A stretch of 64,000 bases of DNA from an uncultured Candidatus Saccharibacteria bacterium (GTDB lineage Bacteria > Patescibacteriota > Saccharimonadia > Saccharimonadales > CAYLGV01), in NCBI GenBank assembly GCA_964394925.1, contig CAYMZG010000001.1, positions 67,656 to 131,655 of the forward strand. Direction: 5' to 3'. The translations under genes and the position numbers were made by a program. Below, in pieces: positions 9,537 through 28,212 of this stretch; the stretch's first letter is position 1; each line of letters opens with the position of its first letter. The notes below the pieces were generated by a model that made no database searches, was not told the origin of the DNA, and saw nothing but the letters and a program-made list of their open reading frames with translations.

Positions 9537-9597
9537 ATTATTTAACACCCTAATGCGCTTTGAGCTGTTAGACAGGGCGGTTACATATAGGTCTCCT

Positions 9598-9744: not shown

Positions 9745-9903
9745 TGGTCGATTTTCACATCTGACCCCTGGGTAGAACACAAATTGCTGCTCGGTTGTTG
9801 TGCGATTTGCATCGAAACCCCCGTCTCCTTCACGCTATTAGTTTTGTAAGTGGTCGTCTCAAAGCTTTGGGTGTCACCGCCAGCGACCTTAATGCGTGTT
9901 ACA

Positions 9904-10050
9904 CCAACAGTAGTTTCGCTCCTGGTCATCATATGTCCAACAAAGGACATACTTGGCAGACCAGCCAACGCCACTATGATGGCGAGATACCACCTGCTCA
10001 GCAGATGCAACAGCGAACTGTTACTCCTACCGTTTTGTTCCGCAGGGCAG
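9904..10050. repeat. 147-bp direct repeat, promoter-proximal copy
   Basis: Identical by eye to 9598-9744. It begins about 7 nt downstream of the predicted -10 box. Confidence 0.9.
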
Positions 10051-11260: not shown

Positions 11261-11535
11261 AAAACTCCTTTTCATAAGATTATAGATACCTATCACCGCA
11301 AACCAAAGCAGTAGCACTTTTAATAAGCATAAAACGGGGGGCGGGTCGCCTTTGACCCCTGTTAAAGGTACTCCGCTGTATAAATAGCGAATTTATGGGG
11401 GTAGATTTTACCAAGCGTTTTTTGGACAGAAAAAAGCAATACCGAATTTTTGGGAACAACTTTCAAAATACGCTTTTTGCGCCAAGAAATGGGCGACTCG
11501 CGTAATAGTATTCGGCGTAAGCTGGTACTGGTTTA

Positions 11536-12396: not shown

Positions 12397-14049
12397 ATGG
12401 CTGAGCTAAACAATACTCAGAAATTATTAGAACTACTCCAAGCAGGTCAACCAAAGTCACCGGCTGATGTTGACACTGGTACTGTTCGCTATGCGTTGTA
12501 TGCTCGCAAGTCAACCACTAGCGAAGACAGACAGGCGTCTTCTATTGAGGACCAAATTAAAGAGTGTATGGAGAATGTCGTATCTCCTAATAACCTTAAT
12601 ATCGTAAAGGTCTATGACGAAAGCTTCTCAGCAAAAGTAGCTGATACGCGCGTGAAGTTTAATGCAATGATTAGCGAGATTGAGAACGGTCGTATTGACG
12701 GCGTTATTGCATGGCATCCTGATAGGCTCTCACGAAATATGAAAGAGGCTGGTGCAATCATTGACCTTGTAGATAGAGGTCTAATTAAGGACCTACGATT
12801 TAGTACATTTACTTTTGAGAATACCCCTGCTGGCAAAATGCTCCTGGGCATAACTTTCGTCATGGCAAAGCAATACTCAGAGCACCTCTCGGAGTCAGTG
12901 GACCGAGGCAATAAGCGAACGGTCGTGGAAAGAACTGAGTTTATTGGCAAATTCAAGCATGGTTATATTGTAGATATTGACCGCGCATTCCAACCCGACC
13001 CACACAACTTCACCAAGGTTAAAGAGATGTTTGCCATGGCGCTCGCCGGTAAATCACAGAAGGATATCCGACTATGGATAAATGAGCAGGGTTATACGGT
13101 CCAAAAACGCGCAGGTGGTGAATATGTGCAGCACATCTGGGATAAAGATGATGTGTCTAAGCTACTCAGAGACCCTCACTATGCCGGGGTACACAAATGG
13201 GGCAAAAACCTGACCGACCTAGTTGAGGCTTACGACTTTGAGCCGATGATAACCGTTAATGAATTCCTCAGGATAAATAAGATAGATAGCCTGAACTCAT
13301 CAAAGGTATTGGCAATTAGTAGACCAAGGAGCGGTGATATAGGCGCTGACCTGCTTCGTGGTATGGTCTACTGCTCTATGTGTAATAAGACCTTTACCTC
13401 AATGCTTATACCAAAACGAGACAAAGTTACTAAGGAAATCATCCATGCTCGCTACTACTATAAATGCGAGACAGAAGGCTGCTCTATGGTTAATAAATCT
13501 GCTCGCGGTGGGCTGGTCATAGAGGCTGCGCAACAGTTCTTTAGGCAATACCTATTCGTTACTAAGAGCAACTATGCCTATTACGCGAAGGAGGCTGAAA
13601 AAGAGGCTAACCGTAAGGCGACTGAGTTTACTAGCGCCATAGCAAGACTAAAGCTGCTCATTGCCAACAAAGAGAAATCATATGAGGAGGTAAAAGACCT
13701 CATCATAAAGAACCCCGAGCTAAAAGACCACTACGACCTGGCAAAATATGCTAAGGAAATTAAAAAGCTCAAGAAAGACTATAAGGAGGCAGCCGACTCA
13801 CGCGACAAAATTAAGAGCGCTATTCCAAGTTTCGAGGAATACCTCAAACTCCTGGAGTCGACTCCCGTTATTCTGAGTAAAATACGCGACATGAAGACCA
13901 TGGATGCTCTACTGCGTGTTTTCTTCTCTAATTTCACGATTACACCGGGCGAAAAAGACTTTCGTAAGGGGTCAACTGTTACCTATAAACTAAACGAACC
14001 CTGGCAAGGGTTCGTTGATGACGATGATTTCGTTTCTGGTGCCAGATAG
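12397..14049 (+). CDS. Large serine recombinase (rec1)
   Basis: N-terminal resolvase-type catalytic region (YALYARKSTTSEDRQ...DGVIAWHPDRLSRN), a recombinase domain, a zinc ribbon (CSMCNK...YYKCETEGC) and a coiled-coil tail. The last 4 codons and the stop lie in the shared att-like core/IR. Confidence 0.9.
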   Translation: MAELNNTQKLLELLQAGQPKSPADVDTGTVRYALYARKSTTSEDRQASSIEDQIKECMENVVSPNNLNIVKVYDESFSAKVADTRVKFNAMISEIENGRIDGVIAWHPDRLSRNMKEAGAIIDLVDRGLIKDLRFSTFTFENTPAGKMLLGITFVMAKQYSEHLSESVDRGNKRTVVERTEFIGKFKHGYIVDIDRAFQPDPHNFTKVKEMFAMALAGKSQKDIRLWINEQGYTVQKRAGGEYVQHIWDKDDVSKLLRDPHYAGVHKWGKNLTDLVEAYDFEPMITVNEFLRINKIDSLNSSKVLAISRPRSGDIGADLLRGMVYCSMCNKTFTSMLIPKRDKVTKEIIHARYYYKCETEGCSMVNKSARGGLVIEAAQQFFRQYLFVTKSNYAYYAKEAEKEANRKATEFTSAIARLKLLIANKEKSYEEVKDLIIKNPELKDHYDLAKYAKEIKKLKKDYKEAADSRDKIKSAIPSFEEYLKLLESTPVILSKIRDMKTMDALLRVFFSNFTITPGEKDFRKGSTVTYKLNEPWQGFVDDDDFVSGAR

Positions 14050-14260
14050 CCAGCATATTCCAAACAATAAATGCCACTAATGTAGACGTGTACAAGCTTG
14101 AAGCTCTGGCACAGCAATTTAACCTAGCGGGAGATTTGCTCCAAGCATAAAGCTGGAAGGTAAATCACAGCCTGTGCAGGTTCTGTTTAATGACAAGTGC
14201 TTGGTAGCGCTTTGCTGCTGCCAATGTTGCTAGGCAATAACAGTGAGGTATCAGTGAGAA
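14037..14260. repeat. IR-A left arm (224 bp), begins with core TGGTGC
   Basis: Perfect reverse complement of 24003-24226 when compared block by block. Confidence 0.9.
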
Positions 14261-14910
14261 CTTAATTCAGATAGTAGCACCTTGAAGTTAAGCTCACCTA
14301 TATTCTTGGGCGAGATAACAACATTCTGTGCGCTGCTTAGTGTCATATAACTGTGGCTGACTAATTCAGGTATAGCTTGGAGCCAAAGAGCCTTGCTCCT
14401 CATAATTACAATCGTTTTATTTTGCTTTATTGCTTCCTTAACAAGCTCAAAGGAGTAAAGCTGTGAAGGAGTAAAAGCGTTGATATGTTTGTAGTTAATT
14501 GAGTGATAGGGAAAGTATTCAATCATCATAATTTTATCTCTAAGTGCTTCTAGGGACACGCCAGCATTTAATAGTGGTTTAAGTTTTGCGCTCCACCATT
14601 TATAGCCACCCGTTTTTTCTAGCCCGCCGTTAAAGTAATAGAATGGTGATTCAAAGGGGTCATTTAGATTACCCCGACACCCTTCAATAAATGCAGTGAG
14701 TTTCATATTCACGCTTACATCTGAATCAGTAAAACCTGGATTAAGTGCCAAGAACACTACCTTTGCATTATTAAGACCACCTACAAGAGGTTCAGGTAGC
14801 GTATCAAGTCGCAAGCCAATGAAGTTTTTGTGATTCTCAATAACTGCTAAGTCATCATCAAGAATATAAGGTTCTCTAAATGGTAGTGACTTCCAAGGAT
14901 TACTTCGCAT
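14251..14910 (-). CDS. Hypothetical protein, possible uracil-DNA glycosylase superfamily member
   Basis: VVFLALNPGF resembles the MUG/UDG motif-1 (G-x-NPG) and EYFPYHS loosely resembles motif 2. The assignment is weak. The last 10 nt lie inside IR-A. Confidence 0.45.
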   Translation of the reverse strand: MRSNPWKSLPFREPYILDDDLAVIENHKNFIGLRLDTLPEPLVGGLNNAKVVFLALNPGFTDSDVSVNMKLTAFIEGCRGNLNDPFESPFYYFNGGLEKTGGYKWWSAKLKPLLNAGVSLEALRDKIMMIEYFPYHSINYKHINAFTPSQLYSFELVKEAIKQNKTIVIMRSKALWLQAIPELVSHSYMTLSSAQNVVISPKNIGELNFKVLLSELSSH

Positions 14911-14996
14911 ACATATATGTTATTACATTCGTTTAGAAGTAATAGCTTTTACTTTTATTAGTTCCCCTATACCACTACAAAGTCTATAATCAGCTT

Positions 14997-15848
14997 ATGG
15001 GATTATTATCTAAACTATTCAATTCGGACAATCAAAAGGAACCAAAAATTACTGTAACCGTAACTGGCGGAATAGAAGATGACGGTTATAAACCAGCGAA
15101 GCGTGAGTTTAGTGATAATGAAGCTGGTTTACTAGATACTATTAACACTAATGAAACAGTAGTTCCCACGCAAAAACTTCCGTTTTCTAATGTATGTCCA
15201 TACTGTGGAGTAGTCCAATCCAAGCCAGTAGGACGCAAGAAGAACTGTTCAGATTGTAAAAAGCCTATCTATGTAAGAACTACGCAAGACCTTTTTCCTT
15301 CTAGTGCATTAACGGAAGAACAAGTAGCTCACGTTGATTTTTATATGGGAATGAAGAACTACCTAATGGCTACGAAAGATGATTTCAAAAGGCACGAAAA
15401 GCTCTTACAGAAGAAATGGAATACACCAAAAGTTAATACCTACGACGTACTTTGGTCAATGTACAACGACACAGAGCTTTTAAAGCGAAATATAGATAAA
15501 TCCTACACTGGAAAGTGGGCTACTATACAGTTATTACGTAATCATCAGATTGCTACTTTTGAAGCAGCAGAGTATCAAGCAGCAAGAGGTAATGACCCAA
15601 CCCCTTACCTAAAAACAGCACAAGAGTATTCACTAAAAATGGCAAAGTTAAATGAATACGCAAAAGGTCTTACAGTTCAAAGTTATTCTTGTTGCGACGC
15701 CTGTACAAAGTTCCACGATAAGACGTTCACATTAGACTTTATTGAAAAAACACCAGTACTACCTATTAAGACCTGTACTCACCCTTTTAGGGACGGTTCT
15801 AAGTTTGTTCTGTGTACTTGCAGGTACAGTGAATACACCGAATACTAA
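14997..15848 (+). CDS. Hypothetical Cys-rich (zinc-ribbon) protein
   Basis: CPYCG...CSDCKK and CCDAC...CTHPF...CTCRY clusters. No known family recognised. Confidence 0.5.
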   Translation: MGLLSKLFNSDNQKEPKITVTVTGGIEDDGYKPAKREFSDNEAGLLDTINTNETVVPTQKLPFSNVCPYCGVVQSKPVGRKKNCSDCKKPIYVRTTQDLFPSSALTEEQVAHVDFYMGMKNYLMATKDDFKRHEKLLQKKWNTPKVNTYDVLWSMYNDTELLKRNIDKSYTGKWATIQLLRNHQIATFEAAEYQAARGNDPTPYLKTAQEYSLKMAKLNEYAKGLTVQSYSCCDACTKFHDKTFTLDFIEKTPVLPIKTCTHPFRDGSKFVLCTCRYSEYTEY

Positions 15849-15852
15849 CAAG

Positions 15853-17355
15853 TTATTCCTTGCACAGCTCCATTAAGTAATCGTAAATCTTTACCATTGC
15901 TAGCGTGTCTAAGCAACAATAGGTTTTTAGCGACTTGTAAATATGTTGAGCTTCTTCGTTGGTTAAAGCGCCTGTAACAGCTTCATACCAGCGAATAGAA
16001 GCTGATAGTCCATTTTGTATATCAAGCTCTTTATAGCTAAACTCTGGGACTAATACCGGCAATACATATTTTATTGAGCTACTACCCTTAAAATCGTGAT
16101 GTACATAATGCTGTTTACTAAACACGTCCATTAAATCAAATACACGATTATTCATATCTGTAAGATAGTCGGAGTATTCGGGATACGACTTAGCCATTTC
16201 TACATTACGTCCAGTTTCAAAAGATTTATTCCAGACTATTACACTCCCTGTATCGCCAAGGTTTTCCTTCAAACTTCGCAGCAACCCTTCCATTGGAGCT
16301 TTCTCGTTATCGGTCGCTAAGTATTCAAAATGCTCTAGTTCACTATTTTTATCTTTCTTTACGTGTAAAGAATACTGGAAAGGTAATTGCTGAAACGGAG
16401 AGCTACCACTAACAAGCGGTAAGGCAGTAGATACAGTTTCGTAATCCAAAAAGTAAAGTGGAAACTCTAATTCGCTGCATAGCTCTTTAATAGAATCTTT
16501 ATCAATTATAGGCTCTTTTGTTTTCGCTACTTGAACTTGATTCTTTTGTATAACGGAAAGCTTTAAGTCTGCTGGAACGTCTTTCACATCATAAATATCA
16601 CCGTCAATGAGTATTCCTAATTTCTTACCGTTAATACGAGAGATATTAAAAACAGAGTATTCGGGAATGTTTGGATTAAAATAATGAAAAGTCGGACAAT
16701 GACCAGACCTAGTTTTTAATTTACAGCTACAGGATTTAGGCTCGTCACTCCTATTAACAAGCTCCACAGCGTCATTTATCTGCTGTTTGATTGTAGGCAT
16801 AATTTTTTCTACTTTTTCAGTTACATCTATTGTTATTAAAAGTTCTTTAGGGTTGATTGCACCTCTACGAACGTACTCTTTATTCAAGTGAATTACTTGT
16901 ACATTGGAGATGAGATACCCTGATTCTTCAAAAGCTATACGTTGAAAAGTAACATCATATATATGCTCTGGCTTAATTGAGTTTGTAGACTTAACTTCGT
17001 ATAGCGTCCAAGTATCATCAGCATTTTTCTTGATTACGTCAGCCATTGCTAATAAGCCAGTTTCAGTAACTACTGTTGCTTGAAATAGAGTTTTAGCATT
17101 CTCTGCAACTAAGACATCAGTGTCTTCTTTTGCTTTTCTACCTCTTGTAGTAATTAGTGTAGCTTCTGGGAATAATTCACGGGCTTTTGCTTCAACCTCG
17201 TTACCTTGTTCTAGGCGACGGTTAATAGCTTCTTCTTCATCAGTAGGGACTAGTTCTGGTTTATGTTTCCAAAGCCAAAGGTAACTAGGGCAACACTGAT
17301 ATTTCAAGAAATCTGACTTTGATAAATATGTTTTTGTTTTTGTGGCGGTTGTCAT
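15853..17355 (-). CDS. DUF2779 domain protein (predicted PD-(D/E)xK/Cas4-like nuclease N-terminus)
   Basis: The N-terminus YLSKSDFLKYQCCPSYLWLW is characteristic of DUF2779, and there is a Cys cluster (CSCKLKTRSGHCP). The start overlaps the upstream stop (ATGA). Confidence 0.7.
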   Translation of the reverse strand: MTTATKTKTYLSKSDFLKYQCCPSYLWLWKHKPELVPTDEEEAINRRLEQGNEVEAKARELFPEATLITTRGRKAKEDTDVLVAENAKTLFQATVVTETGLLAMADVIKKNADDTWTLYEVKSTNSIKPEHIYDVTFQRIAFEESGYLISNVQVIHLNKEYVRRGAINPKELLITIDVTEKVEKIMPTIKQQINDAVELVNRSDEPKSCSCKLKTRSGHCPTFHYFNPNIPEYSVFNISRINGKKLGILIDGDIYDVKDVPADLKLSVIQKNQVQVAKTKEPIIDKDSIKELCSELEFPLYFLDYETVSTALPLVSGSSPFQQLPFQYSLHVKKDKNSELEHFEYLATDNEKAPMEGLLRSLKENLGDTGSVIVWNKSFETGRNVEMAKSYPEYSDYLTDMNNRVFDLMDVFSKQHYVHHDFKGSSSIKYVLPVLVPEFSYKELDIQNGLSASIRWYEAVTGALTNEEAQHIYKSLKTYCCLDTLAMVKIYDYLMELCKE

Positions 17356-17744
17356 AGTTCTACATTTCTTATTCGGTCAAGACGATATTTATAACTGTAA
17401 CCCTTCGTACCTGGTATATGCAAATAAGTGTTATCAAATGTGAAGCTATAAAATACCCTAAAAGTTTTATCATCTTTGTAATAGATTTTTGCAGGTTGGT
17501 TTGATACAGAGCGATATTTCAAATACTCCAAGATGTATTCCATAGATACTTCTTGTTCAAACTTTACTCGTTTAACTACAGGTTTAGTTGCAGACCTAAC
17601 AGTCTTCTGTGTATTCCATTCACCGCACGAAGTACATCTGCCTGACCAAGTTTCAGTCACAGCGTCGCAGTTGCTGCACTGATACCAATTTTTATTAGAA
17701 GTAGATTTTTCTTGCCGACCTATTTGCTGCCTAAACGAGTGCAA
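17352..17744 (-). CDS. Zinc-ribbon protein; the coding frame very likely extends upstream to 17882 or beyond (see slippery site)
   Basis: CSNC-x10-CTSC ribbon. The track start is a TTG, but the same frame stays open upstream to 17939 and encodes a second ribbon (ICSVC-x17-CYLC) with no ATG/GTG/TTG start. Confidence 0.6.
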   Translation of the reverse strand: MHSFRQQIGRQEKSTSNKNWYQCSNCDAVTETWSGRCTSCGEWNTQKTVRSATKPVVKRVKFEQEVSMEYILEYLKYRSVSNQPAKIYYKDDKTFRVFYSFTFDNTYLHIPGTKGYSYKYRLDRIRNVEL

Positions 17745-17878
17745 CGTTTTGCCAGTTACTTTTTCGTAACATAGATAGCACTCTGGTCGTCCTTTGAAAG
17801 GAAATAGCCACGACCATTTTACTTCCTCACAAACGCTACAAATCCGCTTATCGCCTTTTTGTACTGATTCAATAACGG

Positions 17879-20800
17879 CTAAGAAACCGTCAATAGCCCC
17901 TTGCGTATATTCTTTTTTTTTACGACGTTGGCTAATAAGCCGTCAAGTTGCTTTATGGGTTCTTTTCCAAGGTTAAACTTGTTCAGTCTTAGAAACTTAT
18001 AGCCATAGCCTTCAAGTACTTTTTGCCTATAAACATCATCTGCTTTTAGATAACTTTCGTAGTTACTTTCATTTACTTCATCTAGGTTTATGAAATGTTC
18101 ATTAAATCCGTCATATTCAATAACTATTTTTTGTTTACCGAATGTAAGCAAGAAGTCTACTTTATACATTGGGTGGCTGTAATTTTTATCTAGCGACTTC
18201 AAGTATTCGCCTAGCGGGAACTGTGGAACTAGTTCTAGTTGGTCTTTGTTCTTTTGGTAGAACTCGGTCTGATAGAAGTAGTTCTGTACTAGAGGTTCCA
18301 TCGCAGACTTCTCGTCAGTACCACCGATTTGATGAGTAGTGGTGTTAAGAGCATTTTCATAATAAAGTAGCGCAGTTTTAACTTCGCCCCAATACTCATT
18401 GACAGGCTTACTAAGTACAAAATGTATTGTTTCTTTTGCTCGGCTGAAACCAACATTTAGACGTTGCTCACGTGTCCCGAACTCCTTCCCAGTCTTAACT
18501 GATTCTTCCATTGAAATTGGGAAAATATATCGGTGTGTATTCTCATCACTTTTTTCAACCATACTGTACAAAAGATAATCTCGTTCTTCGCCTTGGCAGG
18601 TATCAAAGGTCATCACCTTTAGGGAGTGTTCGTGTAGCCAGTCAGAAATCCCCGAGTCATTTAGCAGGTTGTTAATAAACGTGGCTTGCTCTCTGTGTGG
18701 TGTAATAACGCCTAATGAGCCAGCATAATCCTTGTTTTTGAGTGCTGTAAATTGCTCTAGGATATAGTTAGCTTCCGCAGAGTTTGTCAGCCTGTATTGT
18801 TCGGTGACACCTTCTGTCTCAACTTGCGTAAACTTGATAACTTCACTAATAGGTAATGAACGAGCTTTCATACACTGTAAGTTATTGTCATAGAAATACT
18901 TGTTTGAATAACCAATGATTTCTGGGTAACAACGAAAATGCTTTTTCAGCATTGTTTGATAATTTGTAATGAATCTACAGAAGTCCAAAATTGAGCGTTT
19001 AACATTAAAGTTTTCATCTACCCTTGCAGAGTAAACTGAACTGTAGTCTTTAGCCTGTGCGTCAATTGAAGCCCTTAAAGTTTTCAGTAGGTTACTGCGA
19101 TACTTGCTGTTAGTAAGTACGCTAGCGTTTCCAGCCTTTACGTTACTAAACTGCTTCTCATCACCAAGTACCAAGATTTTTTTGCCACGAATCAAAGCTG
19201 GTAGAGCTTGGGCAATACTAACCTGGGAAGCTTCGTCAATTATTACTAAATCAAACAAGCCTTTTTCTAAAGGAATATACGTTGCGTAATCTCTAATGCC
19301 AGCTAGTATGCAGGGGAACGCTTGCTTTAAGTCGCTGAAAAGAACTTTAGGAAACTTCTGCTTAGATTTGAGCATAGATTTCAGCGTTCTAATATCAGCA
19401 GCGTGGTGGTCTACATAGTCAATAATACGAGTATCTAAAATGTTAGCCATTTTAGCTGCATTAAGTAGGTACAGGCTTTCGGAACTATCTGCAAAGTTAT
19501 CTGTAGCTATAACTTCAAACTTATCGGCAAGTTTCTGTGCTTCTTTCTTATCATTCAGGTAATCAGCTAGTTCGCTTTCACTCATATCTATGAATCGCTT
19601 ATCAACTGCGTCTACAGATTCAGTGCCTTCTGTAAGGTTTATGGCTTGTGCAACATCAGGGTAGCTGAAAATGAATTGCTCTACTGTGCTTCTATGATTT
19701 AGAGCAGTTTCTAGTTCTTCAAGCTCACCAGCAAGTGATTTTAGTTTTTTGATTTCTTCATCAGGGCTTGATAACAATACATTTACGCTGGATTTAATAA
19801 TTGTAAGCACCTGTTCGTTAGCGTGAGCGATTTCCTGCAAATTACGAGCATTGCTTAATGCGGTAATGGCACTGTTAATGTCTTTGAGTTGCGATAGCTT
19901 GTAGCTCTTAATGAAGTCATTTTCATTTGGTTTACTTAGTAGATTTAATACTTTTTTAATGTTTTCTACTTCATCGCCTGGCAGGAGCAATAGCTCTAGG
20001 ACAGGTTTCCACGAACTTTCATCTAGTCCTTGTTGCTGCAATTTACCCTTTAGAAAGTTCAGTGTGTCTACGAACCCTACCAGCTCTGTAACGTGTTTTT
20101 CGGGCGAAGATAGGTTTAGATACGGAAGTTGAGTTTTAAGCTCCCTTACAAGGGCTTCTATTGAAGATTTCTTGCCAGAATAGCCAAGAAGCCTAGACCG
20201 TAGAGATTGTAGCTTTGAAATAAAGTCATTTAGTGAAGTATGTAATTCGCTTAGGCTTACTTCACATTTCAAAGATTGCTCAATAATATCTTTTGAGTTG
20301 TAGATATTAGGGGCAAACATTCTGACCGCATTTACTGTGTCCCTAGAGCGATAGAAATTATCTTCTGCTGCAAATACGTCAGCTATAGTACTAGCTTTGC
20401 TTAATGACTTAGTTCCGCTATATGATGATTCCTTCAAATAAGCTATACATTCATCTAGGTTTTCATTTATATCATCTACTTGCTGTTTTAGCTGGTTTTG
20501 ATTCTCAACACTTTGTTTCTTGTACCCATTGATAAACGCAGCGAAGTCTTTACTCAATGAATGCCGTGATTTTGCGTATGCGTCAGTAGCTAGAATAATT
20601 TGCTCTAAGTTTGATAAAGCTGGTGAATTAGCGAATGGAATCAAATACAAAACTTTGCTTTGTTTCAAGGCTAATACTGATTTATGTACGTCCTTGAAAG
20701 ATTCAATTAGTTCATCATCAACGGCACTAACCCAATCAATGCCTGTGTACTTTTCTTCTGACTTAATAACTGATTTAACATCAGATAAACTAATCTTTTC

Positions 20801-22549
20801 GCCAACACCAATTACCGTTTCTAGTGATTCTGTGGCTTCGTCCTTTGCTTCTTTTTCAGCAGTTTTAAAATCATTAACTCTACTTCTATATGCTCTAAGA
20901 TGTTCACGCACTTTTTCTAGTGCTTGTCCTTCAATAACCTTAGCTAGACCTCGGCTAGATTTTCCTAATCGCAGAATAGGATTTTGGAAGTTTTTGTCGT
21001 GCCTAATAGTACTTAATGTGTCAGTAATCTTGTCTTGAACTACATCAAGAGCTTCTTCTTTGTCTGAAAGCACAAGGACAGATTGACCTTCCAGGAGTGC
21101 CTTACAAACAATCGCAGTAATTGTATGGCTTTTACCAGTTCCTGGTGGACCTTCAAGTATTGCAACTTTACAGTCGTCTTTTTGCAGGGCTAGTAAAACT
21201 TGTTTCTGCTCTTCATTTAAGGCTATAGGGCTATCAACAATCAGCTTTTCTAAGATTGTTTTTTCTTCCCATTCTTGTGCAACGTCTTCAATAAAGTTTT
21301 GTGGATTTTCAGTAACGAAGCTGTCAATCAGTTCTGCAAAGGCTTCCGTAAGTTCGCCTTGGTCTTCAATAATTTCTTCATAATCATTTATTAAGGATTC
21401 GTCAGACTTATCAAAGAGAAATAGCTGTAAACGATTAGATATGCGTGTAACCATATTATTAGCAATTTGACTTGACGTTTCTTTAATGTCTACGGGCTTA
21501 GTTAGTCCCAATACGTCCCGAACATCATCTACAATTTTTTGTAACTGTGGCAATAAATCTTTTTTATTTTCAAAATAGATAATTCGGTCAAACGTACCAC
21601 CAACACTTTCATTACTTGAAGTAGCGACATTGTTTTGCTGAACTACAAACTCAATGGCTTTGATATTCACAAATACTCGGCTATCAAAACTGATTGAGAG
21701 TTTAGAATCCTCTTGTTCCACAGAGATAGGTACATAGAATAATGGAAATGAGAAGTTATTAACGCCAATCTCGCCGAAATATACATATAACTCTGTTTTA
21801 TCAAGCATATCTTTATTTCGGTTGAGCTGTAGTATTTCAGCATATGCGTCTGACGCACTAAACTCTTTGAAAAACTCCTTTAGAGCAGCCTTTACTGCAA
21901 GTGAGTCAAAAATACCTGCCAAAGCTTTAGAAAGGGACTTAGAATCCTGTGTAGCAGCAAAGAACTCCTCTAGGACTGTAGCTATACTATCTTCTGCAAG
22001 TGCATAGACCTTTGCAGTAGCGTCCGTTTCAAGCTGGTATAAGCTACTTTCAGCACTCCATCCAGCAGCTTCTAGTGATTGTTCAATGTCATTCAGGAGC
22101 GGGGCGATAACCTTTGTATCAAACTTATTCTTTATAACTTCTAGAGAAGTTTCAAAATAGTTATCATAATCCTTTTGATTATCTAGCCTAAGTTGATTTA
22201 TTTCCTTCGTGATTTCTTTTAGGGTGTCAATAATTTCATCATCGGATAGCTGGTCAATTCGCTGTTCAAGTAAAGAAACTAATCTATCAGAAATCTTAGT
22301 GGTGTATTTACCAAGTTCTACATCAAAACTTTCTTTTGCAAAACCACTTATGAAGTTTTTATAAAGTTCTCTATAGAGGGTCGGGTACTTATCAAGATAA
22401 AGCCCTGTAGACAAACCTTTATTTACCCTAGTTGTAAGGTTACGCTTTGGCTGTGTGCGTTTTTTGAAATCTGTTTCCAAAAAAGCCATAAAGTACTTGG
22501 CTACTTCGGTAACAAAATCTTTACTAATTACAGGGGGCTTCGTGTCCAT
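17879..22549 (-). CDS. Giant SF1 (Upf1/DNA2-like, AAA_11/AAA_12-type) helicase with C-terminal DUF559/Vsr-like endonuclease domain
   Basis: Walker A ILEGPPGTGKSHTI, Walker B LVIIDEASQ, motifs TFDTCQGEERDY and NVGFSRAKE. The C-terminal YKVDFLLTFGKQKIVIEYDGFNEHF is typical of DUF559/REase folds. About 600 aa are inserted between Walker A and B. Confidence 0.8.
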   Translation of the reverse strand: MDTKPPVISKDFVTEVAKYFMAFLETDFKKRTQPKRNLTTRVNKGLSTGLYLDKYPTLYRELYKNFISGFAKESFDVELGKYTTKISDRLVSLLEQRIDQLSDDEIIDTLKEITKEINQLRLDNQKDYDNYFETSLEVIKNKFDTKVIAPLLNDIEQSLEAAGWSAESSLYQLETDATAKVYALAEDSIATVLEEFFAATQDSKSLSKALAGIFDSLAVKAALKEFFKEFSASDAYAEILQLNRNKDMLDKTELYVYFGEIGVNNFSFPLFYVPISVEQEDSKLSISFDSRVFVNIKAIEFVVQQNNVATSSNESVGGTFDRIIYFENKKDLLPQLQKIVDDVRDVLGLTKPVDIKETSSQIANNMVTRISNRLQLFLFDKSDESLINDYEEIIEDQGELTEAFAELIDSFVTENPQNFIEDVAQEWEEKTILEKLIVDSPIALNEEQKQVLLALQKDDCKVAILEGPPGTGKSHTITAIVCKALLEGQSVLVLSDKEEALDVVQDKITDTLSTIRHDKNFQNPILRLGKSSRGLAKVIEGQALEKVREHLRAYRSRVNDFKTAEKEAKDEATESLETVIGVGEKISLSDVKSVIKSEEKYTGIDWVSAVDDELIESFKDVHKSVLALKQSKVLYLIPFANSPALSNLEQIILATDAYAKSRHSLSKDFAAFINGYKKQSVENQNQLKQQVDDINENLDECIAYLKESSYSGTKSLSKASTIADVFAAEDNFYRSRDTVNAVRMFAPNIYNSKDIIEQSLKCEVSLSELHTSLNDFISKLQSLRSRLLGYSGKKSSIEALVRELKTQLPYLNLSSPEKHVTELVGFVDTLNFLKGKLQQQGLDESSWKPVLELLLLPGDEVENIKKVLNLLSKPNENDFIKSYKLSQLKDINSAITALSNARNLQEIAHANEQVLTIIKSSVNVLLSSPDEEIKKLKSLAGELEELETALNHRSTVEQFIFSYPDVAQAINLTEGTESVDAVDKRFIDMSESELADYLNDKKEAQKLADKFEVIATDNFADSSESLYLLNAAKMANILDTRIIDYVDHHAADIRTLKSMLKSKQKFPKVLFSDLKQAFPCILAGIRDYATYIPLEKGLFDLVIIDEASQVSIAQALPALIRGKKILVLGDEKQFSNVKAGNASVLTNSKYRSNLLKTLRASIDAQAKDYSSVYSARVDENFNVKRSILDFCRFITNYQTMLKKHFRCYPEIIGYSNKYFYDNNLQCMKARSLPISEVIKFTQVETEGVTEQYRLTNSAEANYILEQFTALKNKDYAGSLGVITPHREQATFINNLLNDSGISDWLHEHSLKVMTFDTCQGEERDYLLYSMVEKSDENTHRYIFPISMEESVKTGKEFGTREQRLNVGFSRAKETIHFVLSKPVNEYWGEVKTALLYYENALNTTTHQIGGTDEKSAMEPLVQNYFYQTEFYQKNKDQLELVPQFPLGEYLKSLDKNYSHPMYKVDFLLTFGKQKIVIEYDGFNEHFINLDEVNESNYESYLKADDVYRQKVLEGYGYKFLRLNKFNLGKEPIKQLDGLLANVVKKKNIRKGLLTVS
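17912..17921 (-). promoter_or_regulatory. Slippery run A9G containing the A_AAA_AAG heptamer in the zero frame
   Basis: The minus strand reads GTA AAA AAA AAG AAT. The -1 frame (or a +1A transcript) continues without a stop into the zinc-ribbon ORF. Confidence 0.5.
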
Positions 22550-23049
22550 ATTTTGTGAGCTTGCTTACGAATAACTATACAACATTTACTCCTGTAAATC
22601 CTGCTTAAGTTAAAAATGGCAGGAAATACTTATTTAAGCCCTCTACAGCCCTATATGAAATGTCCTAAACTATAGATGTGGAAGAACTGCGTAAAAAAAT
22701 TTGAGGAGCATTAAAGAATATGCCACCCATTGACTGGTCGGACACTAGACCGCCAACTGAACACGCAGTTCACGCTATGATTAGGAACTTACACGCTGCT
22801 GCTGGCACAGACGCAGACAACACTCTAAAACGCAAAGAACAGTGAGATAACAGTGAGCAAATAGTGCGATAGTGCCTGACGCTGGTTGAGCTTTAAGGCT
22901 ACAGATTTTTCTGACAATGCCGCAAAACCCATTTGTGTTATTTTATATATACCTTGTACTAGGTACATACCTTTTACTTATACAGACCTAGTACTATACA
23001 AATCTAGTACTATACATAACGTAATAGTGCCATTTCATTACGTGAACTG

Positions 23050-23391
23050 TCACGAATCCTCTTGCAGGGCGTAATGTTTATCATTATGGGTACGGTTAAT
23101 AATTACACCAGAGTAACTTTCAACCTCGTCAATGATACTGTCTAACAAGAACCCGTAGAAAGATGAATGCTTGCCATACTCAAACTTATCTTTCCAGCGT
23201 TCACTGGATTTTTCTTTATAGCTCCCAGGATACAGGCCGTATTCACCCTTATGTGCGTGGAATAGTACAAACTTGAAATCCAAGTATAGGTCAATTGGCA
23301 TTATATGTACCTTAACTCTGTATGTGCCTTCGTCTAAACTTGTAGGGGCACTATATACTTCTACTTGTTCAAGATAGAGTTCTACCTGCAT
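23050..23391 (-). CDS. Hypothetical protein (113 aa)
   Basis: ORF overlaps the upstream gene by 10 nt (operonic). No recognisable motif. Confidence 0.45.
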   Translation of the reverse strand: MQVELYLEQVEVYSAPTSLDEGTYRVKVHIMPIDLYLDFKFVLFHAHKGEYGLYPGSYKEKSSERWKDKFEYGKHSSFYGFLLDSIIDEVESYSGVIINRTHNDKHYALQEDS

Positions 23392-23798
23392 AGCTCAACT
23401 CCATTTACCTCGTGCCATACAGAATGAAGTATGCAAACCCAGTCTTCATCACCACGAGCTTGAGCGCACATCACTTTGTCTAGCTGCGCTTCCCGCAATA
23501 TGTCATTCAATAGTTTCTTGCGCCGTTGATTAAGCTTAAACTTCCTGCGCAACCAGCCTGGCTTTACTTGGCCGTATTGCATAAAAAGCCAGCGTATCCA
23601 TTTGAACTGCTCGGTGCTTAGCTTAATCTCTATTTTGTTTATGACTCTACGCTGTAAAGTCGGGTCTAAAACCGCCGTCTGGGTGTCAGGAGCATAATTT
23701 GTACGCTTCGCATATTTGTCTAGCTTTTTGCTGCGACTTTCTACCGTAATGTTTTTTTGCAGGTTTTTGTGTCGGGACTCATCATATTGAGTTTTCAT
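23382..23798 (-). CDS. Hypothetical basic protein (138 aa)
   Basis: ORF downstream of a strong promoter. Lys/Arg-rich; possibly DNA-binding or a recombination directionality factor, which is speculative. Confidence 0.45.
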   Translation of the reverse strand: MKTQYDESRHKNLQKNITVESRSKKLDKYAKRTNYAPDTQTAVLDPTLQRRVINKIEIKLSTEQFKWIRWLFMQYGQVKPGWLRRKFKLNQRRKKLLNDILREAQLDKVMCAQARGDEDWVCILHSVWHEVNGVELCR

Positions 23799-23923
23799 TT
23801 AACCCTACCTTTATATAGAGCGAACAGACCAGTCGGCATACTGGCTCGCTTTTATTTAGGAGTAACGAAGCACACCTACGCTCCGTTAAACGCTGTTTGT
23901 AAGAGTCACTTTCACTTACCTAC

Positions 23924-23952
23924 AGTATACGCTAATGCTTATGGAAAGTCAA
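23924..23952 (-). promoter_or_regulatory. Sigma70-like promoter (TTGACT-17-TATACT)
   Basis: The minus strand reads TTGACTttccataagcattagcgTATACT. It lies just inside the segment bounded by IR-A, upstream of the 138-aa gene. Confidence 0.55.
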
Positions 23953-24002
23953 GCCGATTTATGTTCTAATAAACCTTTATAATAAAAAGTCGGCTTACAG
24001 TT

Positions 24003-24226
24003 TTCTCACTGATACCTCACTGTTATTGCCTAGCAACATTGGCAGCAGCAAAGCGCTACCAAGCACTTGTCATTAAACAGAACCTGCACAGGCTGTGATT
24101 TACCTTCCAGCTTTATGCTTGGAGCAAATCTCCCGCTAGGTTAAATTGCTGTGCCAGAGCTTCAAGCTTGTACACGTCTACATTAGTGGCATTTATTGTT
24201 TGGAATATGCTGGCTATCTGGCACCA
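24003..24226. repeat. IR-A right arm (224 bp)
   Basis: Perfect reverse complement of 14037-14260. It contains the last 37 codons of rec2. Confidence 0.9.
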
Positions 24227-25744
24227 AACTGCATTTTTAGCGCCTTCGGGCGCTTTTCTGTTTAATTGGGTAAGCTCGTTATAGGGGTAATTTACGCTAA
24301 ATGTGAGCTTTTTGCCGTTAAGTTGCAAGTTAGAAAGTAGGAAGCCAAGAAGCTTAGATTTTTGGGCTTCATCAGCACACTTGAACAGTTCTTCGGCTCT
24401 ATTTGCTAGGTCTAACAGATACGAACAAGTTAGTAACAAGTCTTTATTGCCCCTAGTTAGAATATCTAGCTTGTCATTTAGGCGTTCTTGACGCTTCGTA
24501 AGAGTTTTGACGACCTCGTCATACTTATCTGGTTCAATGCGGTCATCTACCAAGCGTTCCCACCACATATTGAGCTTTTTATCTACTGTGTCATACTCTT
24601 GTCTTGCTTCGGCTACAGACACTGCGTAGTGCTTTTGCTGGCTTTTGTGATTAGCTCTTAATTCTTGCGCAACTTTTTTAACTATGTAGTCTGGAAGCGT
24701 AATCTCTTTGATAACAGCTTCAATAGACCCCATAACCAAGGATTCTGCTGTATTAGGATTCTTGCAAGTAGGGTTTGCACAATTTAGGTATACCCATTGC
24801 TTTGACCTGAATGGCGATACTGCTCGTCCGCATACTCCACAACTCACAACGTCTTTAAGAGTGAAGTCCATACTGTCCCATTTACGTTTCATAGACTTGC
24901 GCTCATCTCTAACCAACTGACACCTATTAAACAAAGACCTGTCTATCAAAGGCTTGTACTTGTGTTTGTACTCCTTGCCCTTATGAACCATAGTGCCGTA
25001 GTAGAACTTATTGCTGATAATCTTTTCTACGCCAGCCTTAGTAAGTTCGGCCTTACCTGTTTTACGGCTTGTATAGCCAGCTTTGAGGAGTTCTTTAGCG
25101 ATAACACTGTACGGCATACCCAGCGCACGTAACTCAAAGGCTTTTACAATGTAATGGGAGCGTTCTGTGTCCTCGTGAATGTCCTTTATTGGCTTAGATA
25201 ACACTTCTGTTTGTATTAGCACATTCTTATAACCTACAGGCGCACGATGAACCCAAACACCGTCAGCTAATAGCTGCTCAAACCTGCGCTTAACATTGTC
25301 CCTTATGGAGCTTGAGTAGTAGCCAGCAAGCGCAATACCTATATCTAAGCGGAACAAATCAGGTGCAGGGGAATCCTTATGAATGAATAAGTTATCGCTA
25401 GGAAAGTGCATTTCAATCTTGCCCTGCCTAAACAACTTTGTCAGTGCAGCTCGTTCATTGGAAGTTGATTCACGGCTGAATCTGTCAATTTTGTCAAACA
25501 CAACAAAAGTTTGTGCATTGGCACTTTGTAATGGCTCAATTACCAACTCATTAAAGGTCTTGCGGTTTTCTTTGTAGGCTGTTTCGTCAAACTCCACATA
25601 CCTAAAGTCTTGCTTTTCAACCCAACGGCAGCGTTTAGCGTACTCATATAGGCGTTTTTTCTGGGCGGGTAGTGCTTTACGTTGCTCTACGTCCGACACC
25701 CTTGCTACTAATAATGCTTTTGGTTCATTGTGTGCTGTTTTCAT
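24113..25744 (-). CDS. Large serine recombinase (rec2)
   Basis: Catalytic region ALLVARVSDVEQR...FDKIDRFSRE, a zinc ribbon (CGVCGR...YLNCANPTC) and a coiled coil. The gene reads through the TGGTGC core at 24226-24221. Confidence 0.9.
   Translation of the reverse strand: MKTAHNEPKALLVARVSDVEQRKALPAQKKRLYEYAKRCRWVEKQDFRYVEFDETAYKENRKTFNELVIEPLQSANAQTFVVFDKIDRFSRESTSNERAALTKLFRQGKIEMHFPSDNLFIHKDSPAPDLFRLDIGIALAGYYSSSIRDNVKRRFEQLLADGVWVHRAPVGYKNVLIQTEVLSKPIKDIHEDTERSHYIVKAFELRALGMPYSVIAKELLKAGYTSRKTGKAELTKAGVEKIISNKFYYGTMVHKGKEYKHKYKPLIDRSLFNRCQLVRDERKSMKRKWDSMDFTLKDVVSCGVCGRAVSPFRSKQWVYLNCANPTCKNPNTAESLVMGSIEAVIKEITLPDYIVKKVAQELRANHKSQQKHYAVSVAEARQEYDTVDKKLNMWWERLVDDRIEPDKYDEVVKTLTKRQERLNDKLDILTRGNKDLLLTCSYLLDLANRAEELFKCADEAQKSKLLGFLLSNLQLNGKKLTFSVNYPYNELTQLNRKAPEGAKNAVWCQIASIFQTINATNVDVYKLEALAQQFNLAGDLLQA
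24221..24378. repeat. IR-B left arm (158 bp) inside rec2
   Basis: Perfect reverse complement of 27985-28142. It overlaps IR-A only in the 6-bp core. Confidence 0.9.
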
Positions 25745-25826
25745 CTTATAGTCCTTTACAAACTAACTATATGATGACCTCCGATACTAAAGCGACCGGA
25801 TAATTTGCGTATTCTAAACTTAAGTT

Positions 25827-26288
25827 TTAGTCAAACAGGCTAAGCTCTGCCATATCGGGTGGCTCTAATTGGCTAGCAGATTGTTCAAGGCGTTCTCTTG
25901 TGAGTACTGCGTCTTTGTCATTTTCTTTCTTATTGCGAGCGTCCACTCTACGCCATAACTCCTCAAACGGCACGTCAAGGTAGCGCAACTCTATTCTTAG
26001 ACCTAAAGAGTGAGCTTCAAGACGTAACTTATCTCGCTCCTCACGTCCCCAGAATCCGTTTTCCAGTATTACATTGCTACCTGACCTTGCTTGGTCTAAT
26101 GCCTTTTGCCATTGTTCAGCTTCAATTTCCGCTCTAGCTTTCTCATCAAAAAAACTAATACCGCGTTCATACATTTCTTGGTCTGGACTCATCACAGTGG
26201 CTTGCAGTTCCACGGCCAATTTTTTGGCAAGTGTGCTTTTACCTGCACCTGGCAATCCACAAAGCAAAATAAGTGTTCCTTGTTTCAT
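25827..26288 (-). CDS. P-loop kinase/ATPase (AAA_33-like)
   Basis: Walker A GLPGAGKSTLAKKL. Small size typical of a phosphotransferase. The start overlaps the ABC-F stop (ATGA). Confidence 0.65.
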   Translation of the reverse strand: MKQGTLILLCGLPGAGKSTLAKKLAVELQATVMSPDQEMYERGISFFDEKARAEIEAEQWQKALDQARSGSNVILENGFWGREERDKLRLEAHSLGLRIELRYLDVPFEELWRRVDARNKKENDKDAVLTRERLEQSASQLEPPDMAELSLFD

Positions 26289-27760
26289 TTGATTTCCTTA
26301 TCTAGATTAATTGTACGATTTATGCCAACTTGACGTAAGAAGTATTTGTCGTGTGAAGCAATTAACATTGCGCCTTGATAGTCCTGCAATGCAGCTTCAA
26401 TCTTTTCTCTGGTAGGCAAGTCTAAGTGATTAGTTGGCTCATCAAGAATCAAAAGATTATTTTGCGATAGTAATAGTTTTGCAAAACTAAGCTTAGCTTG
26501 CTGCCCTCGTGACAGCTCACCTGGCTTCTTTCTAAGGTCTTTTTCGTCTAGCCCTAGACTTCTGGCTTCACGGTAAATAGCTGTGGAACTTGACCCTGTA
26601 GTATCAAGGTTTTCAAAATTACTCAGGCTATAATCCAGTCCATTTACATCTTGGGAAAAGTAGCCGTACTTTATATTTTGTCCTAGCTCAATGTTCCCGC
26701 TATCTGGTGCAAGCAATCCAGCAGCGATTTTTAGTAGCGTAGTTTTGCCACTGCCATTAGTGCCTTGAATATGCAGCCTTTCCGTACCTCGTATTTCAAA
26801 GTCAGTATATGTAAGGGTTCGTTTATAGTATGCTTTCCTGACATTTTCAGCCCTTACGATCAGCTTAGTTGGCGGAACACTCCCAGCAAGTGTAACTTTG
26901 TAGTTTTTGCTGGACTCTGGCTTTTCAACTTCCTCTAGTTGCTCAAGCCGACCTTGCAGCATTTTGGCATTTTGACCGAACTTAACAGTTAAACGATTTT
27001 TGAAATAGTCCCGTTGTGCCTTGTCATTATCGGGGCGTTTTATGTTCTTGTGGATATGCTGGCTCTTATCGCTCTGAGCTTTAATAGCTTTTTCTAACCG
27101 CTTACGTTCCTCAATGTTACCTTCGTATTTTTCAAGCTCGGTTTGATATTCAGTTTCCTTTTGCTGTTTGTAAAAATCGTAATCACCGCCGTATTGCTTG
27201 AGCTTGCCTTTATGCAGTTCGGCAATACTTGTGGCAACTTTGTTAATGAAGGTTCTGTCGTGGCTGACGAGTACAATACCGCCCTTAAAGTTCTTGACGA
27301 ATTGCTCTAACCACAACAGACCGTCAACATCCAGATTGTTGGTAGGCTCATCAAGCAGTAGCACAGTAGGTTCTGGGTCGCTCGCAAGTACTTTTGCAAG
27401 TGCCAGGCGTGTTTTCTGACCACCACTTAAACTAGAAATGGCTCTGGTTTTTGGGACGCTTTCAAGCCCGACTAGACTTAATGCGTAGTCTATTTTCCAG
27501 TCCTCATACTTATCAAAGCTATCTTGAATAGTACCCACTGCTTCGGCTTCCTGTGGGACATAACCAATGACTTCGTGATGTAAGGCAACACTGCCACTGT
27601 CTGGCTTTAGCTGACCAAGAATTATTTTAAGTAAGGTTGTCTTGCCAGCACCATTTTCGCCAATAAGAGCAATGACCTCGCCAGGGTTAACCGACAGGCT
27701 TACATCTTCAAGTACAGGCTTATCTCTGTACGATTTGTGTATGTGTTGCAGGGCAAACAT
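26285..27760 (-). CDS. ABC-F family ATPase (two ABC domains, no TMD); possible ribosome-protection/ARE type
   Basis: Two Walker A motifs (GENGAGKTT, GTNGSGKTT), two signature motifs (LSGGQKTRL, LSRGQQAKL) and a charged inter-domain linker. Confidence 0.85.
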   Translation of the reverse strand: MFALQHIHKSYRDKPVLEDVSLSVNPGEVIALIGENGAGKTTLLKIILGQLKPDSGSVALHHEVIGYVPQEAEAVGTIQDSFDKYEDWKIDYALSLVGLESVPKTRAISSLSGGQKTRLALAKVLASDPEPTVLLLDEPTNNLDVDGLLWLEQFVKNFKGGIVLVSHDRTFINKVATSIAELHKGKLKQYGGDYDFYKQQKETEYQTELEKYEGNIEERKRLEKAIKAQSDKSQHIHKNIKRPDNDKAQRDYFKNRLTVKFGQNAKMLQGRLEQLEEVEKPESSKNYKVTLAGSVPPTKLIVRAENVRKAYYKRTLTYTDFEIRGTERLHIQGTNGSGKTTLLKIAAGLLAPDSGNIELGQNIKYGYFSQDVNGLDYSLSNFENLDTTGSSSTAIYREARSLGLDEKDLRKKPGELSRGQQAKLSFAKLLLSQNNLLILDEPTNHLDLPTREKIEAALQDYQGAMLIASHDKYFLRQVGINRTINLDKEIK

Positions 27761-27772: not shown

Positions 27773-27972
27773 CTAAAAAACCGAGCGTGTTTGACGTATA
27801 TCGCCACACAACTGCTCGGTTTCTCAAAAGGGTTTAACTGATAGAATTACAATCAAATAGCAAAGCTACACAAAGCTGTGTGAACGACTTTAGCGGTTGA
27901 TTGTTACTATCATAAGTATGTTTAACTCCTTTAGTACATATAAACATTAACACTATAATCTCAATGTGTCAA
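27773..27972 (-). promoter_or_regulatory. ABC-F leader: promoter, 7-codon leader ORF and terminator-type attenuator
   Basis: TTGACA-17-TAATGT (27972-27944). AAGGAG followed by ATG ATA GTA ACA ATC AAC CGC TAA (27913-27890). Hairpin AACCGAGC...GCTCGGTT plus T6 (27822-27773), then AGGAG and the ABC-F ATG. Confidence 0.55.
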
Positions 27973-27984
27973 ATACTTTTATAC

Positions 27985-28142
27985 GTGCTGATGAAGCCCA
28001 AAAATCTAAGCTTCTTGGCTTCCTACTTTCTAACTTGCAACTTAACGGCAAAAAGCTCACATTTAGCGTAAATTACCCCTATAACGAGCTTACCCAATTA
28101 AACAGAAAAGCGCCCGAAGGCGCTAAAAATGCAGTTTGGTGC
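27985..28142 (+). pseudogene. Duplicated rec2 3' fragment (IR-B right arm) fused to the tRNA-Gly 3' end
   Basis: Encodes ADEAQKSKLLGF...NAVWC, identical to rec2 residues, and ends in the core. The track ORF 27966-28148 is this fragment. Confidence 0.8.
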
Positions 28143-28212
28143 GGGTGACGAGACTCAAACTCGTGGCCTCTTCCTTGGCAAGGAAGCGCTCTATCAACTG
28201 AGCTACACCCGC
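28137..28212 (-). tRNA. tRNA-Gly(GCC), CCA encoded
   Basis: Cloverleaf read by eye: GCGGGTG/CACCCGC acceptor and anticodon loop TTGCCAA. The D-loop is AGTTGATA and the T-loop TTTGAGT (apparent A19:U56 covariation). Confidence 0.85.

Follow-up and report, generated by a model that had tools for sequence, protein, structure and literature searches.

In a 64,000-nt stretch of the genome of an uncultured Candidatus Saccharibacteria bacterium (contig CAYMZG010000001.1; hereafter the window, with positions counted from its first letter), two genes for putative large serine recombinases (LSRs), rec1 and rec2, each read across a 6-nt core, TGGTGC, which is the antisense of the 3′-end (GCACCA) of a tRNA-Gly(GCC) gene. 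The window and its relatives are quite probably explained by small islands that are moved by an LSR whose element-borne attachment site (attP) lies in the last codons of its own gene. Recombination at such a site would give two isoforms of the enzyme depending on the state of the element. The overlap would also hold a terminator, the islands would form arrays at the tRNA gene and, in one small clade, an inverted copy of attP would make up an invertible cassette.

Two recombinase genes read across the core

The rec2 protein ends KAPEGAKNAVWC/QIASIFQTINATNVDVYKLEALAQQFNLAGDLLQA (a slash marks the crossing of the core), with codons W507-C508 formed by the core itself (GCACCA on the plus strand, 24221-24226). 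An earlier note, made from the window alone, had seen this crossing, NAVWC/QIASIFQT...DLLQA, and had derived the tail from an arm of an inverted repeat. Both observations hold, but the tail has 35 codons rather than 37. The rec1 gene crosses the same six bases at another site (TGGTGC, 14037-14042) in a different frame and ends ...DDDDFVSG/AR, two codons into the arm, as that note had described. Its description of a duplicated fragment was equally accurate: an open reading frame (ORF) of 60 codons (27966..28148) repeats the end of rec2 and terminates ...NAVWCG inside tRNA-Gly(GCC). Inverting 24227-28136 in silico yields the products it had predicted, a tRNA-terminated rec2 and a fusion of the orphan fragment to the tail, and this flipped isomer is found in three related genomes. 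The 543-aa protein is thereby reduced to 509 aa (W507, C508, G509, stop), not to 507. A fourth core site, at 8092-8097, was missing from the note's list.

Both proteins are predicted to be LSRs of Candidatus Saccharibacteria. Pfam Resolvase (PF00239) matched rec1 at 1.5e-20 and rec2 at 1.6e-11, Recombinase (PF07508) was found in both, and Zn_ribbon_recom matched rec1 only, below threshold. The two sequences are 22% identical and colinear up to the C-terminus. In an alignment of 77 homologs the nucleophilic serine S17 is invariant within a conserved R15-V16-S17-D18, of which R15 is nearly invariant, and so are the cysteines C302, C305, C322 and C327. The AF2 model of rec2 (pLDDT 86) shows a long coiled coil (352-456; helices 352-399 and 405-456), as is typical of serine integrases. 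Top Foldseek matches of this model are LSR-DNA complexes, with E down to 5e-17 and with full-length matches to 9dxd, 9dxh, 9tep and 4kis; PhiC31, Listeria LI and Bxb1 are among the structures found. A PDB search by sequence reached the TP901-1 catalytic domain only, the wider matches coming from the fold search. Matches to Ccr and XisF in NCBIfam were far under the cut-off, and the rec1 and rec2 families therefore appear to be separate, undescribed LSR clades. For rec2, 448 homologs were found. Homologs with a named source are nearly all labelled Candidatus Saccharibacteria. All 79 genome loci that we retrieved (L numbers below; P numbers are homologous proteins) are metagenome-assembled genomes (MAGs), mostly labelled Saccharibacteria or Patescibacteria.

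The core occurs at four sites in the window (S0 to S3, Table 1). We interpret the region bounded by these sites as two adjoining small integrative islands, standing in tandem at the 3′-end of tRNA-Gly(GCC) in the order chromosomal flank, E1 (8098-14036, with rec1), E2 (14043-28136, with rec2), tRNA-Gly. Such an array would grow by the entry of each new island between the previous recombinase gene and the tRNA; rec1 would read two codons into the tail arm of E2 because the newer island was inserted between rec1 and the tRNA. At S0, the far end of E1, the continuation of the rec1 frame, HLQNLLKLFNSLMDDNIFRALTIPEPREMLGKVIY, matches the conserved tail of the rec1 family (tblastn against the tail of P0204, E=1.5e-4). 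The junction of a rec1 end with a rec2-type tail, as at S1, was also seen in L025, where a rec1-type gene end flanks the left attachment junction (attL). Proteins P0124 and P0160, which end GAR like rec1, show this junction as well, and P0121 is identical to rec1. A tandem array within a single family is present in a chromosome-level MAG assembly (L011), where the upstream recombinase bears the tail.

The layout is shared by two families and follows the tRNA 3′-end

C-termini were classified in the best 120 homolog clusters of each family. In the rec2 family, 67 clusters stop one or two codons past WC, 31 read through the antisense of tRNA-Gly (for example WCGYRDSNPGPLPWQGSAL, in which PWQG corresponds to the GCC anticodon loop read in antisense), and five have the conserved tail. 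In the rec1 family, 40 stop right past GA, some of the homologs ending GAG, while 62 read through antisense tRNA-Gly in the form ...GAGEETLTLDLFLGKEAL and four have a tail of their own, GA/xxQNLLKLF...IIY, which is distinct from that of rec2. Overall, the gene stops in an antisense tRNA, or reads through it, in ~80-85% of the listed homolog clusters of both families, and the layout recurs in hundreds of relatives. Both families thus share the same pattern: attP lies within the ORF and the integrated form is shorter or different at its C-terminus.

That homologous LSR genes elsewhere might also span their attachment cores had been raised in the earlier note, and this turned out to be the rule: at 58 of the 79 genome loci the recombinase ORF terminates at the 3′-end of a convergent tRNA (ARAGORN), the CCA of which coincides exactly with the invariant W507 codon (TGG). 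Gly-GCC accounts for 35 of these loci and Asn for 13; Trp and Asp account for three each, Arg for two, and Ser and Gly-TCC for one each. The rec2 family thus appears to have radiated over tRNA targets with the crossover kept at the CCA end. For tail-bearing homologs on short contigs (L002, L003, L084) the surroundings were not decisive.

In the distant clades (L040-L082), where the gene ends coincide with the CCA of Trp, Asn, Asp, Arg, Ser and Gly-TCC tRNAs, the acceptor stem dictates the residues that follow the invariant Trp (WQG, WLR, WRA, WCP, WRR).

A conserved tail stands at the far end of the islands

At ~28 loci the region 6-11 kb upstream of the recombinase gene contains an intact tail ORF of 33-39 codons in direct orientation. 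These ORFs begin immediately past TGGTGC (TGGCAG in Trp-targeting elements), the sequence to the left being unrelated, and have the consensus xIVDAFQTSAIxAxxDYKLKHLVEQFxLSGxLL. In 15 simple elements of 6.5-11.1 kb, attL and the right junction (attR) are identical over exactly the 6-nt core. With attL made up of flank, core and tail, and attR of recombinase gene, core and tRNA, excision must rebuild a recombinase gene with the tail.

The earlier note had allowed that the true crossover might lie elsewhere, or that the tail might not be conserved. TGGTGC is the sole identity between the element ends of the 15 simple relatives, and each of the 26 distinct tails that we compared follows the core directly and in frame, is intact and has a similar length. 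Pairwise, the proportion of nonsynonymous differences (pN) is 0.32 and that of synonymous ones (pS) 0.66, with differences of 0.38, 0.27 and 0.54 at codon positions 1, 2 and 3. Past the first 27 nt pS is saturated (0.75) at a pN of 0.33. We conclude that the tail is under selection at the protein level. In the first nine codons pS is only 0.43, as would be expected if this stretch doubles as the P′ half-site of the recombinase. In the AF2 model the tail forms helices at 503-515, 524-534 and 539-542 with moderate confidence. The in-frame stretches upstream of the tail at attL are mostly 1-20 codons long; as the tail is untranslated there, selection on it must act in the excised or the array state.

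Six metagenome loci (L088, L113, L114, L120, L124 and L129) carry the core and an intact tail with a convergent tRNA-Gly within 0.5-0.9 kb and no recombinase gene. They look like miniature or decayed elements that keep both ends, and they might be mobilised in trans.

The overlap doubles as a putative antisense terminator

We call the arm on the gene side of the core X and that on the tail side Y. On the tRNA strand the X arm reads AGCGCCTTCGGGCGCT followed by TTTCTGTTT, starting 12 nt past the 3′-end of tRNA-Gly, with the hairpin at 24239-24254 (+) and 28124-28109 (-). A hairpin with a T-run is found in the same place in 28 of 28 Gly-GCC-joined relatives examined and in two of three Trp ones, and across relatives 11 stem variants keep the pairing through compensatory changes. 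These data suggest that the last 40 nt of the recombinase gene before the core double as an antisense intrinsic terminator, so that codons such as ...KAPEGAK... or ...KKALSGS... would serve both purposes. The terminator in the X arm would substitute for the one lost by the tRNA upon integration.

An internal inverted attP-like site in one clade

A simple element contains one X arm and one Y arm. The window has two copies of each, since S2, inside E2 and inverted with respect to S1 and S3, is an attP-like site complete with X, core and Y. The copies form two perfect inverted repeats, 14037-14260 versus 24003-24226 (224 nt) and 24221-24378 versus 27985-28142 (158 nt), which overlap solely in the 6-nt core and, being perfect over such lengths, could not have arisen by chance. 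Among the loci examined, the extra site is present only in the window and in L001, L004 and L083, the recombinases of which are 86-88% identical to rec2. Inverted repeats measure 358 nt (98% identity) and 160 nt (100%) in L001, 120 nt (100%) in L004 and 141 nt (100%) in L083; the X arms are 114, 135, 152 and 154 nt long (120-160 nt including the core). Cassette arms are 98-100% identical within a genome and 73-87% identical between genomes, which points to concerted evolution, that is, to continuing recombination between the arms. In the three relatives it is the full gene that adjoins the tRNA (in L001, the arm of another element), and a 114-154-nt fragment is joined to the tail. The window shows the reverse, a full gene with the tail. 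Both orientations are thus represented among the four assemblies, each genome showing one, and in L004 the invertible segment is essentially the recombinase gene alone.

Recombination between the X arm at S2 and that at the tRNA would invert the rec2 segment and interconvert the 543-aa tail-bearing and the 509-aa tRNA-terminated forms. Since the arms are perfect repeats, inversion would alter no local junction, and its sole consequence would be the C-terminus of the recombinase. The most likely route is homologous recombination of the RecA type over the 114-154 identical bases, and inversion may be ongoing within one population. Across the family, however, the C-terminus is rewritten mainly by integration and excision and not by the flip between S2 and S3. 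The C-terminal switch for LSRs put forward in the earlier note finds support at the level of gene structure and its conservation; the flip is confined to one small clade.

Serine recombination is conservative and therefore cannot have created the arm duplications. Nor did we find, working through single inversions and deletions on paper, any single-step path from tandem arrays to the cassette. It may have arrived on a circle that already had two inverted copies of attP, or may have been formed by a multi-step rearrangement. Direct-orientation remnants consisting of a recombinase fragment and a tail, as well as recombinase-less mini-remnants next to tRNA-Gly, are common in metagenomes; the hotspot therefore offers rich raw material for such rearrangements.

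Proposed mechanism and alternative explanations

We propose that crossover takes place within TGGTGC, whose TGG is the invariant Trp codon of the rec2 family. In the excised circle, the recombinase ORF would run over the core into the conserved tail of ~35 codons. Integration would leave this tail at the far end of the island, in attL, and the antisense tRNA would then either supply the stop of the recombinase gene or be read through by it. The element would thus make two protein isoforms depending on its state, and these are inferred to differ in activity, directionality or stability. In our preferred reading the tail-bearing form, made only from the circle or after a flip, would be integration-proficient or short-lived, while the truncated form, with all conserved domains kept, would be the resident one. 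A more specific version is tentative, and we hold it to be somewhat doubtful: direction would be set by the topology of the gene and not by a separate recombination directionality factor (RDF), the tail-bearing enzyme, encoded by the circle alone, performing integration or being limited to it, and the tail-less enzyme of the integrated element being excision-competent or quiescent. In the clade of the window, the inverted silent copy of attP would let the integrated element flip its recombinase gene and so recover the tail without excision, which would make it a self-directed C-terminal phase switch of a recombinase.

Several observations weigh against this account. Excision, integration and inversion in this organism are deduced from assembled sequences, and so is the full-length form made from the circle, which was not seen: IMG/VR contained no relatives, and among 45 metagenome matches plus the short contigs examined there was no circular contig or terminal overlap. 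Tail-bearing ORFs in databases can also come from arrays such as L011. No recognisable degron or known domain was found in the tail; tails end ...NLI, ...SLL or ...LLQA, with no clear tag of the ...LAA (ssrA-like) type. No RDF gene was identified. As to the cassette, the orientation of the rec2 segment in the window may be the assembler's choice, because the 158-nt perfect inverted repeat exceeds most short-read k-mers, and the cassette, which only four related genomes carry, could be a neutral relic.

The same gene layout could result from compaction only. Tiny islands that need a terminator right after the tRNA would come to have attP overlapping the gene, and the tail would be the natural C-terminus of the enzyme, with no regulatory switch; its loss would cripple the enzyme, a lock-in like that of archaeal 'suicidal' integrases, or would have no effect. 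The dual coding of the overlap with the terminator agrees with this explanation, as does the position of the truncation, which removes just 35 residues past the last conserved LSR elements (the beta hairpin 470-484 and helix 488-497 in the rec2 model), and the many decayed fragments and recombinase-less mini-remnants at the hotspot fit elements that often become stuck. Yet the tail is kept under protein-level selection in 26 distinct elements though it is untranslated at attL, and it therefore should matter in the excised state. The two LSR families, for all their divergence, have each retained a ~35-aa tail of their own in the same place, which argues for a function, perhaps a regulatory one, over accident. 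We regard compaction without a switch as unlikely. Conservation past the core might instead be at the DNA level, reflecting an attachment-site P′ arm, a promoter or an origin and not a translated tail. This would account for the low synonymous variation in the first nine codons (pS 0.43 versus 0.75 distally), which is consistent with a protein-binding half-site, but it is very improbable as the whole explanation: beyond ~27 nt synonymous sites are saturated while amino acids are conserved (L22 and L28 are invariant and DYKLK nearly so), and 26/26 tail ORFs are intact, similar in length and in frame with the core.

For the cassette, we give only a little less than an even chance to a neutral relic of an old rearrangement, such as an inverted remnant of an array junction, homogenised by gene conversion. 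The few occurrences, all with recombinases at least 86% identical to rec2, the direct-orientation remnants that supply plentiful raw material elsewhere, and the varying lengths of the X arms are what such a relic would leave. It is harder to reconcile with a cassette that has outlived divergence to 73-87% nucleotide identity while its arms are still 98-100% identical within a genome, that keeps the tail ORF intact, and that occurs in both orientations among four assemblies, in L004 with an invertible segment that is essentially the recombinase gene alone. An assembly artefact, in which a population mixed for integrated and excised states or for two orientations was merged into a three-site structure with repeats that do not share one molecule, has hardly any likelihood in our estimate. 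All sequences are indeed MAG or metagenome contigs, and several contigs (L003, L004 and L083) end at the core or the Y arm, or close to one of them. The same architecture, however, recurs, with diverged sequence, in four assemblies that are independent and come from different samples; the 120-nt arms of L004 are shorter than the k=141 implied by its contig name, so that the path is directly supported; and the distal arm junctions 14260/14261, 24002/24003, 24378/24379 and 27984/27985 need real duplicates in either orientation.

Relation to known systems

PhiC31, Bxb1, Listeria A118/LI, TP901-1 and the Ccr recombinases of SCCmec have the same domain series of Resolvase, Recombinase and Cys4 zinc ribbon with an inserted coiled coil. 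Phage-type LSRs and Ccr use short attachment sites with few common bases at the crossover, a pattern that the 6-nt identity of attL and attR in the 15 elements would fit, and their genes, as here, lie at the element edge. The islands described here differ from them in that attP falls within the recombinase ORF, a tRNA gene is targeted at its CCA end and no RDF was identified.

The precedent cited in the earlier note, a mycobacteriophage tyrosine integrase truncated by integration, had to be corrected: mycobacteriophage BPs, with its integration-dependent immunity, has attP within the gene for the repressor and not within that for the integrase, the repressor being 33 residues shorter after integration and the long form carrying an ssrA-like tag (PMC4557955). 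The two systems have in common an attP within an ORF and a tRNA gene as target, and in BPs the two forms behave differently. In BPs, however, a tyrosine integrase remodels the repressor of a temperate phage, whose long form is inactivated by the ssrA-like degron, whereas here a serine recombinase itself would be remodelled, in islands of 6-14 kb with defence-like cargo and no relatives in IMG/VR. The SSV1-type 'suicidal' tyrosine integrases of archaeal viruses and plasmids carry the site of recombination inside the gene that encodes them, an arrangement stated to be exclusive to archaea (PMC8371274); among bacteria, a tyrosine integrase gene with a 5′-proximal split is reported for Riemerella RAP44-like phages (PMC12169736). 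Like the SSV1-type integrases, the recombinases described here have the recombination site in their own gene, target a tRNA gene and would be changed by integration. There the gene is split and the enzyme destroyed, whereas here, in bacteria and in a serine recombinase, only the 35-aa tail after residue 508 would be exchanged.

In the Gin, Cin and Min tail-fibre switches and the R64 shufflon, inversion of a segment flanked by inverted repeats joins a constant gene body to alternative 3′-ends. The cassette resembles these systems in having such a segment, two orientations and alternative gene products. It differs from them in that the recombinase itself would be remodelled, that the arms are perfect repeats of 120-160 nt with the attachment core, that RecA is the likely flipper and that only four genomes have it. 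Full-text searches of the literature turned up no account of an LSR gene that spans attP, nor of these Saccharibacteria elements. Thus, a known principle, an attachment site inside an ORF, would be extended to a new enzyme class and a new target, with an inversion cassette added.

LSRs are prized in genome engineering for being directional, and directionality is thought to need a separate RDF that acts on the coiled coil. A large natural LSR family in which recombination itself changes the protein sequence may offer a simple alternative route to sensing the state of the element. Through this family the targets of serine integrases would also come to include tRNA genes, whose CCA end is read as an invariant Trp codon, and the retargeted clades (Gly, Trp, Asn, Asp, Arg and Ser tRNAs) make up a ready series for the study of attachment-site specificity. 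The overlap of protein tail, attachment site and antisense terminator would be a compact three-way one. In Saccharibacteria, for which few genetic tools exist, these are apparently the main small integrative islands with defence-like cargo, and defined attP/attB pairs could be of use in that group.

Features of the window and its neighbourhood

Table 1. Coordinates of the putative island array in the window
Feature	Position	Strand	Description
S0	8092..8097	+	core TGGTGC; attL (left end) of E1; rec1-frame continuation GA/HLQNLLKLFNSLMDDNIFRALTIPEPREMLGKVIY, stop
rec1-type tail coding segment, orphaned; E1 P′ arm	8098..8206	+	motif as in the tails of P0153, P0196, P0204, P0222
rec1	12397..14049	+	putative LSR, 550 aa; truncated (integrated) state, joined out of frame to E2 tail arm
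S1	14037..14042	+	core; hybrid junction, E1 right end and E2 attL (left end)
Y arm copy 1	14043..14260	+	rec2-type tail coding sequence 14043-14147 and stop, then 110 nt; 100% inverted repeat of 24003-24220
E2 cargo segment 1	14261..24002	.	Brig1-like 219 aa, 283-aa ORF, DUF2779 500 aa, 1556-aa SF1 helicase-like, small ORFs
Y arm copy 2	24003..24220	-	encodes last 35 codons of rec2 (24116-24220) and stop (24113-24115)
S2	24221..24226	-	core in rec2 codons W507-C508; internal attP-like site, inverted versus S1 and S3
rec2	24113..25744	-	putative LSR, 543 aa; full-length tail-bearing form
X arm in rec2 (P arm)	24227..24378	-	antisense terminator hairpin (putative) at 24239-24254
E2 cargo segment 2, upstream of rec2	25827..27760	-	AAA_33 kinase-like 153 aa and ABC-F ATPase 491 aa
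X arm copy	27985..28136	+	152-nt rec2 3′-end fragment abutting the tRNA; antisense strand 28124-28109 is the putative terminator
S3	28137..28142	+	core, last 6 nt (GCACCA) of tRNA-Gly; attR (right end) of E2
tRNA-Gly(GCC), integration target	28137-28212	-	ARAGORN; Rfam tRNA, 71 bits

In an Rfam scan of the window the gathering score was reached by tRNAs only. An inversion of tRNA-Gly out of a Gly-Cys-Leu operon was ruled out, the divergent Gly(-)/Cys(+) arrangement being native in relatives L007 and L045. Candidates for further recombinases beside tRNA-Phe and tRNA-Leu were rejected: 36533..38074 encodes a PIF1 helicase, 42142..43779 an FAD oxidase and 44701..46491 a solute-binding protein. 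Between tRNA-Cys and tRNA-Leu(TAA) lie ORFs for a Cys-rich protein of 147 aa (28424-28867, -) and a protein of 289 aa (28929-29798, +), both without a Pfam match, which may be another small insertion in the tRNA cluster.

The cargo of E2 at 14251-23798, with the Brig1-like, DUF2779/Cas4-like and SF1 helicase-like proteins, looks like anti-phage defence, its matches (including ProA/Hhe-like ones in the 1556-aa protein) all being far under curated cut-offs. E2 cargo segment 1 is syntenic with L001 12272-19922 at 77% nucleotide identity. The element in L001 has 7.6 kb between its Y arms, with pyrD, pyrF and an inositol monophosphatase gene, and its attL flank (870-962) is a degenerate tRNA-Phe-like 5′ half that adjoins a genuine tRNA-Phe (747-822).

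E1 contains a reverse transcriptase (RT)-like gene, an AIR-synthase-like gene and rec1. The RT-like ORF (8196..10010, -) resembles a group II intron RT/maturase (200 bits, below cut-off), with weaker matches to Drt2 and retrons. Its 5′ part and upstream region contain a perfect 147-nt direct repeat (9598-9744 and 9904-10050, spacing 306 nt), where no Rfam match was found; since the RT domain begins near aa 172, the repeats are possibly a non-coding RNA or a leader. A second direct repeat of 66 nt (77% identity; 10066-10131 and 11355-11420) lies on either side of the AIR-synthase-like gene (10130..11317).

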